From NCBI GenBank assembly GCA_963749705.1, contig CAVVNQ010000002.1, forward strand, positions 192,001-256,000: a DNA stretch of 64,000 bases, in the 5' to 3' direction. How positions within the stretch are numbered: the first letter of the stretch is position 1; each line of letters opens with the position of its first letter. This document shows, in pieces, positions 19,753 through 21,392 of this stretch. The notes beneath the pieces are model-generated. The model was given only the letters and a program-made list of their open reading frames with translations, did no database searches and had not been told where the DNA came from. The stretch is from an uncultured Chloroflexia bacterium. Its GTDB lineage: Bacteria > Chloroflexota > Limnocylindria > Limnocylindrales > CSP1-4. A program made the translations under genes and the position numbers.

Positions 19753-21392
19753 GCGTCCTCGCCGATCGCGACATCCGGGCGGAGCTGGAGTCGGGCCGCG
19801 TCCGGATCGACCCCTATGACCCGTCGGACCTGCAGCCGTCGTCCGTGGACCTCCACCTCGATCGCAGCTTCCGCGTGTTCCGCAACAACCGGTACGCGTT
19901 CATCGACCCCCGCTCGCCGCAGCCGGACCTCACCGAGCTGCTGAGCATCGGCGAGGACGAACCGTTCGTGCTCCACCCCGGCGAGTTCGTCCTGGGCCAG
20001 ACCCTCGAATGGGTGGAGCTGCCGGACGACCTGGTGGCAAGGCTCGAGGGAAAGGCGCTCGCCCTCGACACTCCGGTGCCGACGCCGTTCGGCTGGCGGA
20101 CGATGGGCGATCTCGAGCCGGGCGACCTGGTCTTCGACGAGCACGGAGTTCCGACGACCATCGTCGCGACGACGCCGCCCCTTGCGGATCGACCCTGTCG
20201 CGAGATCACGTTCTCCGACGGTGCAACCGTGATCGCGGACGCGGACCACCAGTGGCTGACGGTGGACAAGAACGGTCGACGCGCGGGGCGCTGGCAGGGT
20301 GCGATCCGCACCACCGACGAGATCGCGCGGACGCTCACGGTCCGTGGCGAGCGCAACCATCAGGTGCCGCTGCCAGGCTCGGTCGAGTACGCCCCGCGCA
20401 TCGACCTTCCGATCGAGCCCTACACGCTCGGGGCGTGGCTGGGAGATGGCACGACCACGAAGGCCGAGATCACCTCCTGCGACGAGGAGGTTCTGCGGCA
20501 GATCAGCGGCGACGGGTTCTCGGTGCAGCCGTTGTGGTATGCCCCGCATGCATATCGGATCGGTGGTGTCGGGCGCACCCGTGACGCAACGACGGGCCGC
20601 TACGCGCGCAACGGATCCCTGTCGAGCCGACTGCGCACGATGGGCCAGATGCACGGCAAGTTCGTCCCTCGGGCGTACCTCGAGGCGGGTGTCAGCCAGC
20701 GGCTCGCCTTGCTCCAGGGGCTCATGGATACGGACGGCTTCGTCGACGACGTGGCGGGACGGTGCGAGTTCACCAGCACGAACGAAGGCCTCGCCGATTC
20801 CGTTGTCGAGCTTGCCGCCAGCCTCGGCTTCCGGCCGGTGAGGTCCAGCGGGCGGGCGATGCTCAATGGCGTCGACCACGGACCCAAGTACCGGGTGAAG
20901 TTCACGCCCGACCGGCCGGTGTTCCGTCTGACCCGGAAGCTCGTCCGCCAGAAGCCGACCAGCAGCCGCTTCCATCGCTTCCGGGCGATCGCTGACGTGC
21001 GCGAGGTGGCCTCCGTGCCCGTCCGTTGTATCGAGGTGGCCTCGCCGCGAGGACTGTTCCTGGTGTCCCGCTCGTTCATCCCCACGCACAACAGCTCGCT
21101 TGGGCGCCTTGGGCTCCTCATCCATTCCACCGCGGGATATGTGGATCCGGGCTGGAAGGGCACGCTCACCCTCGAGCTGTCGAACGTCGCCAACCTGCCG
21201 ATCGCGCTGTACTACGGGATGCGAATCGGCCAGATCAGCTTCTTCCGGATGAGCTCGCCCGTCGAGCGGCCGTACGGCAGCAAGGAGCTGGGATCGAAGT
21301 ACCAGGGCCAGTCGGAGCCAACGGCATCGGCGTTCCACGCGGACTTCGAGCGCGGCCGGAAGGTGCGGGAGAGCGGGGAAAGCCCAACGTGA
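19749..21392 (+). CDS. dcd: dCTP deaminase (201-aa extein) interrupted by an intein
   Basis: [56 protein letters not shown]. Confidence 0.95.
20055..21092 (+). mobile_element. Class 3 intein (346 aa) with LAGLIDADG homing endonuclease
   Basis: Starts [11 protein letters not shown]; block B ADADHQW; block F VRCIEV; ends [14 protein letters not shown] and [10 protein letters not shown] endonuclease motifs. Confidence 0.93.

Follow-up and report, generated by a model that had tools for sequence, protein, structure and literature searches.

The dcd gene in the stretch of DNA analysed here (the window, 64,000 nucleotides from contig CAVVNQ010000002.1 of an uncultured Chloroflexia bacterium of the order Limnocylindrales) encodes a dCTP deaminase (Dcd) that is interrupted by a 346-residue insertion. 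Sequence comparison, structure prediction and a survey of related genomes together make it probable that this insertion is a class 3 intein, intact and equipped with a LAGLIDADG homing endonuclease, that it splices by means of its block F cysteine (Cys325), that it is mobile, and that the inteins residing in dcd have one origin, from a DnaB intein. The host genome (G000), like all genomes considered here, is a metagenome bin; its habitat type is soil/freshwater, it is 88% complete, and a profile search of this incomplete genome found a single dcd gene, the interrupted one. All coordinates below are window positions.

Residues 1-102 and 449-547 of the precursor are dCTP deaminase and residues 103-448 are the insert. 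The exteins matched Pfam DCD with an E value of 1.5e-42 and TIGR02274 (dCTP_deam) with 201.1 bits (cut-off 92.8), which places them in the dCTP deaminase family; on the latter profile the N-extein spans positions 1-101 and the C-extein 101-179. The insert is read through its 346 residues without a stop, starting with ALALDTP and ending with FIPTHN; the junctions are LEGK followed by ALALD on the N side and PTHN followed by SSLGR on the C side, and removal of the insert leaves a protein of 201 residues. Because the intein-less dcd genes of 21 genomes of the same genus show EGK(R)|SSLGR as a continuous sequence, the boundaries of the intein are unambiguous and exact. A preliminary description of this DNA, made from the letters of the window, had reported a 346-residue insert that splits EGK|SSLGR and leaves a 201-residue Dcd, and both the translation and the intein-less congeners agree with it.

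Class 3 inteins are a rarer type of intein. The portions of Tori 2010 on which we draw define them by a non-nucleophilic residue 1, by Trp, Cys and Thr at positions B12, F4 and G5 (the WCT triplet) and by Ser or Thr at +1. When the insert was compared with all PDB chains by phmmer, the DnaB mini-inteins 6rix, 6riy and 6bs8 were the top matches (E 1.4e-27 to 1.1e-25), so that its likeness to inteins is far beyond chance. The landmarks common to these proteins and the insert are ALAL(D/Y)TP, RPC (which contains Cys48), ADAxHQW, VPVRC(I/V)EV and PTHN. Trp67, Cys325 and Thr344 align with the triplet of 6bs8 and 6rix and are invariant in an alignment of 24 dcd inteins (A1), which served as the basis of both the invariance counts and the AlphaFold2 (AF2) model; Ala1 is likewise invariant (24/24). 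In the 29 complete alleles from the host's family the splicing residues and the two LAGLIDADG Asp residues are conserved without exception, and all 29 also keep the C junction THN|SSLGR with its His-Asn end and Ser+1. The endonuclease part was recognised by LAGLIDADG_3 (PF14528) with 28.4 bits (cut-off 22.5), by Hom_end (PF05204) with 20.0 bits, just under the cut-off of 21.1, and in the phmmer search by PI-SceI (E 2.6e-4). The preliminary description had already pointed to Ala1 and the missing N-terminal nucleophile, to the class 3 triplet in HQW, VRCIEV and PTHN, and to two LAGLIDADG motifs; the first two are borne out by alignment to the DnaB inteins, and the motifs are present as LGAWLGD131G and LMDTD227G, each with an invariant Asp. 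By its sequence, the segment is a class 3-type intein with a double-motif LAGLIDADG endonuclease.

The AF2 model of the intein had a mean predicted local distance difference test score (pLDDT) of 78.8 and a predicted template modelling score (pTM) of 0.55. Foldseek searches with the model returned PI-SceI (E 1e-16), TliVMA, PI-PfuI, MchDnaB-1 and I-DmoI. The HINT fold was recovered through matches to 6bs8, 6rix, the gp41-1 and Prp8 inteins and the hedgehog structure 1at0, with block G modelled at low confidence, and the superposition on 6bs8 gave a root-mean-square deviation of 1.4 A over 91 columns at 44% identity. Since the PDB alignments and the AF2/Foldseek matches concur, the predicted architecture is a HINT splicing domain that is interrupted by a LAGLIDADG endonuclease of the double-motif kind. 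The features of the locus are collected in Table 1.

Table 1. Window coordinates of the interrupted dcd gene, its putative intein and the adjoining upstream open reading frame (ORF)
Feature	Position	Strand	Basis
dcd precursor gene, 547 codons + stop	19749..21392	+	GTG start; family profiles
N-extein, 102 aa, ends VARLEGK	19749..20054	+	Pfam DCD positions 1-100; TIGR02274 positions 1-101
Class 3-type intein, 346 aa, Ala1-Asn346	20055..21092	+	translation, PDB alignment, AF2 model
Cys48 codon (TGT)	20196..20198	+	alignment to 6bs8; invariant in 24-sequence alignment
Block B core D62-A-D-H65-Q-W67 (DxxH + WCT Trp)	20238..20255	+	PDB and allele alignments
LAGLIDADG homing-endonuclease domain, ~intein residues 101-300	20355..20954	+	Pfam LAGLIDADG_3, Hom_end; Foldseek; pN/pS 0.23
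LAGLIDADG motif 1, L125-GAWLGDG-T133, Asp131	20427..20453	+	Asp131 invariant 24/24
LAGLIDADG motif 2, L219-LQGLMDTD-G228, Asp227	20709..20738	+	Asp227 invariant 24/24
Block F Cys325 codon (TGT), predicted first nucleophile	21027..21029	+	aligns with VPVRC(V/I)EV Cys of 6rix/6bs8; invariant
Block G Thr344-His345-Asn346	21084..21092	+	PDB and allele alignments
C-extein, 99 aa + stop, begins SSLGRLGL (Ser+1)	21093..21392	+	residue 1 aligned to Ser102 (2qxx/4a6a) and Ser111 (1xs1)
Upstream ORF, NrdR-like, 170 aa	19240..19752	+	ORF list and sequence; zinc-ribbon CxxC...CxxC at N terminus

As had been proposed in the preliminary description, the intein sits directly before the motif serine of the enzyme: in the alignment the first residue of the C-extein corresponds to Ser102 in 2qxx, 4a6a and 2qlp, and its counterpart in E. 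coli Dcd (1xs1) is Ser111. The Ser-x-x-x-Arg loop that starts at this residue presumably lines the active site of Dcd. Because the intein splits this loop, the unspliced precursor should be inactive. If the insertion did not splice at all, the gene would be either a dead dcd or one whose product tolerates a permanent inserted domain, and both outcomes are barely credible: the splicing residues are invariant in the 29 alleles, the exteins of the intein-bearing alleles are under purifying selection (pN/pS, the ratio of nonsynonymous to synonymous polymorphism, 0.25-0.26), the gene is the only dcd in G000, and the insert divides the very loop that carries Ser102/Ser111 in the solved enzymes. Among solved structures the C-extein matched 2qxx/4a6a best (E 1e-31), with E. 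coli 1xs1 further off (E 1.7e-17); we take the 2qxx enzyme to be a bifunctional, dUMP-forming Dcd:Dut. In the 88% complete genome G000 there was no Pfam match to dUTPase (PF00692) and ThyA was not found; ThyX is present on contig C8. Together with the likeness to 2qxx, this gene content, read from an incomplete genome, hints that the Dcd of G000 may be bifunctional and form dUMP, possibly as the sole dUTPase.

The splicing chemistry can be modelled on that of MP-Be DnaB's intein and of intein 1 in the DnaB proteins of Mycobacterium smegmatis (Msm) and M. chimaera (Mch). According to the same portions of Tori 2010, class 3 splicing strictly needs the block F Cys and proceeds via a branched intermediate linked by a block F thioester. 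By analogy, the unspliced precursor would be unable to form the Dcd active site; Cys325, aided by Asp62, His65 and Trp67, would attack the Lys-Ala1 bond to give the thioester branched intermediate, the N-extein would pass to Ser+1, and cyclisation of Asn346 followed by an O-to-N shift would yield a normal 201-residue Dcd. The endonuclease would cut intein-less dcd alleles and repair would copy the intein in. The dcd allele appears to have spread within Limnocylindria and Actinomycetota and, lately, between species of this genus.

The distribution of the intein was examined at several levels. A word-indexed protein search with the whole precursor, in which 8000 candidates of 300-958 residues were scored, gave 4642 proteins at E<=1e-5; the best 120 matches were 536-572 residues long and covered 97-100% of the query at 77-100% identity, and the few named proteins among them were dCTP deaminases assigned to Chloroflexota or Candidatus Limnocylindrales. 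In a further scan, in which each prokaryote species was represented by a single genome, 565 relatives of the intein came to light, and the best 80 were kept. At least 54 of these best 80 loci have the dcd junction EGK|...HN|SSLGR, and the remainder consist of a dcd locus with a frame-broken N flank (L107), eight loci without a clean ORF and 17 loci in other hosts. The organisms with dcd inteins belong to Chloroflexota (Limnocylindrales/Limnocylindria) and Actinomycetota (Gaiellales, Solirubrobacteraceae, Thermoleophilaceae, Acidimicrobiales and Jatrophihabitans), with one Acidobacteriota bin in addition; many metagenome proteins likewise have the intein at this position. A HMMER search of 1.84 billion cluster representatives gave 18,553 proteins at E<=1e-3. 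Pfam analysis of 37 of the 150 matches listed identified four Dcd proteins (inteins 48-61% identical) and two DnaB proteins (one intein 56% identical), the others being mostly phage-type terminase large subunits, with one FtsK-like and one AAA_25 protein.

A phage source was considered and set aside after a tblastn search of 50,697 phage records, in which all 844 matching records fell below 60% identity. The best of them were mycobacteriophage terminase inteins with 39% identity over 100% of the query, and no dcd copy of the intein was seen among the 844 records.

Within the lineage of the host the intein is patchily distributed. It occurs in four of the 70 genus genomes, none of them among the 24 of high quality, and in 48 of 401 sampled genomes of the family, which represent 18 of 49 genera and include 12 of 148 high-quality genomes. 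At the level of the phylum 20 of 401 sampled genomes were positive (a tally that includes the unpublished G354), and outside the family the hosts were mostly proteins other than Dcd. Every family locus examined (29 complete, 3 cut or frame-broken) was dcd, interrupted at the same site. Empty dcd alleles, which the preliminary description had proposed to look for in relatives, were found in 21 genomes of the genus and in 16 of the sister family. The latter genomes (G025-G040; family f2, genus g2, same order) are approximately 1.0-1.4 Mb in size and 84-93% complete, and dcd is uninterrupted in 16/16.

Averaged over the 29 complete family alleles, pN/pS was 0.25 in the N-extein, 0.31 in the N splicing lobe, 0.23 in the endonuclease, 0.21 in the C splicing lobe and 0.26 in the C-extein, values that indicate that the endonuclease domain is under purifying selection. 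Movement of the intein was assessed at this one locus in G000, G009 and G020. Over window positions 30000-49999 the nucleotide identity to G000 was 91-92% for G020, 89-93% for G083 and 82-86% for G009, which makes G009 the most distant of the three intein-bearing congeners. The flanks of dcd follow this order (upstream, 93.7% for G020 and 86.2% for G009; downstream, 90.4% versus 80.8%). In the intein the order is reversed, G009 being 96.4% identical to G000 (37 differences in 1038 nucleotides) and G020 89.4% (110 differences), against 359 and 228 differences, respectively, in 2971 nucleotides of flank (Fisher p 3.8e-15). Because the order of the intein reverses that of the flanks, the comparison suggests that the intein was recently transferred between the lineages of G000 and G009. 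Patchy distribution, purifying selection and the incongruence between intein and flanks together indicate recent homing, and the earlier suggestion of a possibly still mobile endonuclease gains support at the population level from the patchy presence, the empty alleles and the incongruence.

To place the intein among its relatives, 74 inteins were included in a quick maximum-likelihood tree, which was rooted at the midpoint and whose support values are from the Shimodaira-Hasegawa-like approximate likelihood ratio test (SH-aLRT). All 57 dcd inteins group together in a single clade (SH-aLRT 100), within which the 34 Chloroflexota copies form a clade of their own (96). The sister group of the dcd inteins consists of three Candidatus Dormiibacterota inteins (82), and two of the three hosts were confirmed as DnaB by Pfam. 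The comparison with DnaB and other class 3 inteins that had been recommended for this locus thus gave a monophyletic group of dcd inteins with a DnaB-type sister. One side observation from the tree concerns L104, from a Candidatus Acidiferrales metagenome-assembled genome (MAG), which is the sole Acidobacteriota dcd intein and adjoins L097 from a Gaiellales MAG within the Actinomycetota clade (87); its placement reflects either a cross-phylum transfer or a mis-binned contig.

All 17 hosts other than Dcd that were examined have Gly-Lys at -2/-1 and Ser or Thr at +1, and insertion between the P-loop Lys and Ser/Thr has been called the 'classic' site (Kelley 2016). At the protein level the junction is ARLEGK|SSLG in Dcd and ARPxxGK|TSLA in DnaB, and at the DNA level it is GGNAAG^AGCTCGCTTGGG in dcd and GGCAAG^ACCTCGCTGGCC in DnaB. 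On the 3' side 8 of 12 nucleotides are equal between the DnaB and dcd targets, the top value in the comparison of non-dcd hosts. The dcd allele most likely arose once, from a DnaB P-loop intein, in a jump that would have been made possible by the similarity of target and junction; its direction and mechanism are inferred.

The junction codons of occupied and empty alleles were also compared. The codons read AAR^AGY in all 29 occupied family alleles, and AGY was found in 32 of 32 alleles of an overlapping Limnocylindria set. Among the 21 empty alleles of the genus (L005-L011 and L142-L155), eight read AAR^AGC, nine have TCN for Ser and four have Arg in place of Lys at -1; the contrast between occupied and empty alleles has a Fisher p of 5.7e-7, but the alleles are related and not independent. 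TCN was present in 6/6 of the sister-family empty alleles (6 of the 16 taken). An obligatory AGY at Ser+1 for occupation was ruled out by TCN in 7 of 23 occupied alleles of other phyla. Shared ancestry or co-conversion is as likely an explanation of the AGY pattern as target specificity. The empty alleles with Arg(-1) or TCN could be endonuclease-resistant targets, and the pattern suggests, as a lead only, that susceptible and resistant target alleles may both be circulating.

Several points weigh against the interpretation of the insertion as a splicing, mobile intein of DnaB origin. Splicing, its dependence on Cys325 and DNA cleavage are predictions from homology; in the AF2 model block G (residues 339-346) has a pLDDT of ~29, and the pTM of the whole is only 0.55. 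Support for the DnaB sister group is just 82 in a quick, midpoint-rooted tree. The incongruence comes from three genomes and one locus, and the assembler may have collapsed a conserved intein from a co-occurring strain, giving a chimera. Furthermore, synonymous divergence (dS) between genera is higher in the intein (~1-2) than in the exteins (~0.5-0.9), so that most copies are old residents and not recent arrivals. Frameshifted copies also occur (L089, L093, L109 and L136), and these could be long-read errors or real decay. Single-base indels or stops that break dcd were seen, in bins with very long contigs, in G702, G823, G719, G573, G770 and G750 as well.

An intein dS that equals or exceeds that of the exteins, combined with the single clade of Chloroflexota copies (96), fits long vertical residence, and some copies carry endonuclease deletions or frameshifts. 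These observations would suit an intein stranded in dcd, with an inactive endonuclease, gained once long ago, lost precisely many times and kept elsewhere because imprecise loss destroys the active-site loop. We consider this improbable, since both catalytic Asp residues are invariant, the pN/pS of the endonuclease is as low as that of the exteins, the order of G000, G009 and G020 differs between intein and flanks at the p value given above, and vertical descent would need dozens of precise deletions to account for an intein present in 18 of the family's 49 genera and in 4 of the 70 genomes of the genus. A mobile intein of which some copies decay accommodates L118 (positions 1501-2346; an Acidimicrobiales MAG), whose dcd intein has been reduced to 282 residues by an in-frame deletion of 186 nucleotides between the LAGLIDADG motifs and keeps all splicing residues. 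This copy looks like a mini-intein in the making, and its deletion is what the homing cycle predicts.

A further reading, compatible with mobility, is that splicing is conditional and the intein is kept as a reversible redox or metal switch, oxidation of the Cys48-Cys325 pair holding Dcd inactive and throttling the supply of dUMP and dTTP until conditions are better; we regard it as rather unlikely. The ORF upstream of dcd is presumably NrdR, a dNTP-sensing repressor, a label that we assign from its CxxC...CxxC pattern. Its stop codon TGA shares bases with the GTG start of dcd in a GTGA overlap (19749-19752), which suggests that dcd may be translationally coupled to this NrdR-like ORF. In the parts of Kelley 2018 used here, H2O2 causes a disulfide between Cys48 and Cys118 (the block F Cys) of Msm DnaBi1, with a reversible block of splicing in vivo. 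Cys48, Asp62, His65 and Trp67 have the same numbers in the dcd intein as in Msm DnaBi1 and the block F Cys is equivalent; both members of the pair, Cys48 and Cys325, are present, although presence alone is no evidence of function. The coupling to the NrdR-like ORF, the single dcd with ThyX and no detected PF00692 dUTPase or ThyA, and the purifying selection on the whole intein would also be in keeping with conditional splicing.

However, Cys48 occurs in all 43 intact subfamily inteins listed, whatever the host. The same parts of Kelley 2018 report that every substitution of Cys48 abolished splicing in Msm DnaBi1, and since Cys48 mutants lose splicing, catalysis or folding alone explains its conservation. 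Because Cys48 is found throughout the subfamily and is needed for splicing itself, its presence does not show regulation. Approximately 88% of the family genomes and 66 of the 70 genus genomes are free of the intein, which is therefore not needed for the control of Dcd, and at 88% completeness of G000 the absence of dut is not established. Redox gating of Dcd by the intein is accordingly put forward here, by analogy, as a minority reading, and that the intein might be at once mobile and an oxidant- or zinc-sensing valve on the sole dCTP deaminase, possibly the sole dUTPase, appears unlikely.

Elsewhere at the locus, the GC profile showed no sharp compositional boundary at the intein. A further copy of the intein in G000, or a copy in DnaB, was looked for and rejected: with the intein protein, PF14890 and PF14528 as queries, no second intein of the same kind was found in this genome. 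Downstream of dcd, the translation of 21400-22264 (+) contains an HxHxDH motif (HLHFDHAGG), which from the translation we take to be typical of the metallo-beta-lactamase fold. On the minus strand, 22670-24552 encodes a WCPPC thioredoxin-like protein adjoining a multi-pass membrane protein, a pair that, judged from the translations, presumably resembles TlpA/CcdA.

The presence of a class 3 lineage in a non-ATPase enzyme of nucleotide metabolism, at a G-K|S-S-L junction like that of the DnaB P-loop, offers an example of a jump to an unrelated gene. Occupied, empty and possibly resistant alleles within one genus form a natural system for the study of the homing cycle, and with its compact size and intact endonuclease this class 3 intein is a candidate for use in protein engineering. 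The valve reading, if true, would make it the first of its class with demonstrated regulation of a metabolic, non-ATPase enzyme; thymidylate supply would be tied to the redox state, beside an NrdR-like gene that may control ribonucleotide reductase, and the natural intein-plus and intein-minus alleles within the genus would provide a built-in control.

Intein-bearing dcd genes are reportedly on record in Proteobacteria and Chloroflexi, MacGregor 2013 being the work said to be cited for them. No publication on a class 3 intein in dcd was found, and wider literature searches on inteins or homing endonucleases and dCTP deaminase yielded a single relevant paper, the one on cyanophage CL131; the site may be listed in InBase, in MacGregor 2013 or in the supplementary tables to Novikova 2016, and in the sections of Novikova 2016 used here a 'deaminase' intein category appears in a figure legend only. 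The preliminary description had called Dcd an unusual host. This stands with respect to the published class 3 list, since the portions of Tori 2010 cited above define these inteins on helicases and terminases, mostly at P-loops. It does not stand in general, as the dcd allele is common in two phyla and splicing has been demonstrated before for a dcd intein of the HNH type (described in sections of PMC6293099).

Among known systems, intein 1 of Msm DnaB (6BS8, entitled 'The class 3 DnaB intein from Mycobacterium smegmatis') and M. chimaera DnaB-1 (6RIX/6RIY) are like the dcd intein in the ALALDTP start, Cys48, DxxH-x-W, block F, PTHN and Ser/Thr at +1. Their junction also follows G-K, and the Msm splicing lobe is the one that superposes within 1.4 A over 91 columns. 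The mycobacterial inteins reside in the Walker A P-loop of DnaB and are minis of 139-146 residues without an endonuclease, whereas the host of the intein described here is Dcd and the full LAGLIDADG domain is kept. Redox control has been demonstrated for the M. smegmatis intein; in the dcd intein only the Cys pair is read from sequence.

The mycobacteriophage terminase inteins (for example those of phages Cjw1 and Kanye; the class 3 prototype is MP-Be DnaB) are 39% identical over the full length including the endonuclease. They share the class 3 signature (portions of Tori 2010) and the classic Lys/Ser-Thr site (Kelley 2016), but their hosts, unlike Dcd, are ATPases. The intein of cyanophage vB_AphaS-CL131 also has a dCTP deaminase as host, and its splicing was shown in E. 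coli, according to sections of PMC6293099. It follows residue 132 of a 204-residue extein, whereas the intein described here follows residue 102 of 201; its published description, in the same sections, sets it apart as an HNH intein and does not call it class 3. PI-SceI (VMA1), the archetypal LAGLIDADG intein, has the same HINT and double-LAGLIDADG architecture but differs in being class 1 (Cys1), eukaryotic and only ~15% identical, and in having an extra DNA-recognition region. In conclusion, class 3 inteins, LAGLIDADG inteins and a spliced dcd intein of another type (CL131) are already known, and what is new is the non-ATPase host with a P-loop-like junction, the spread over two phyla and the signs of recent movement.

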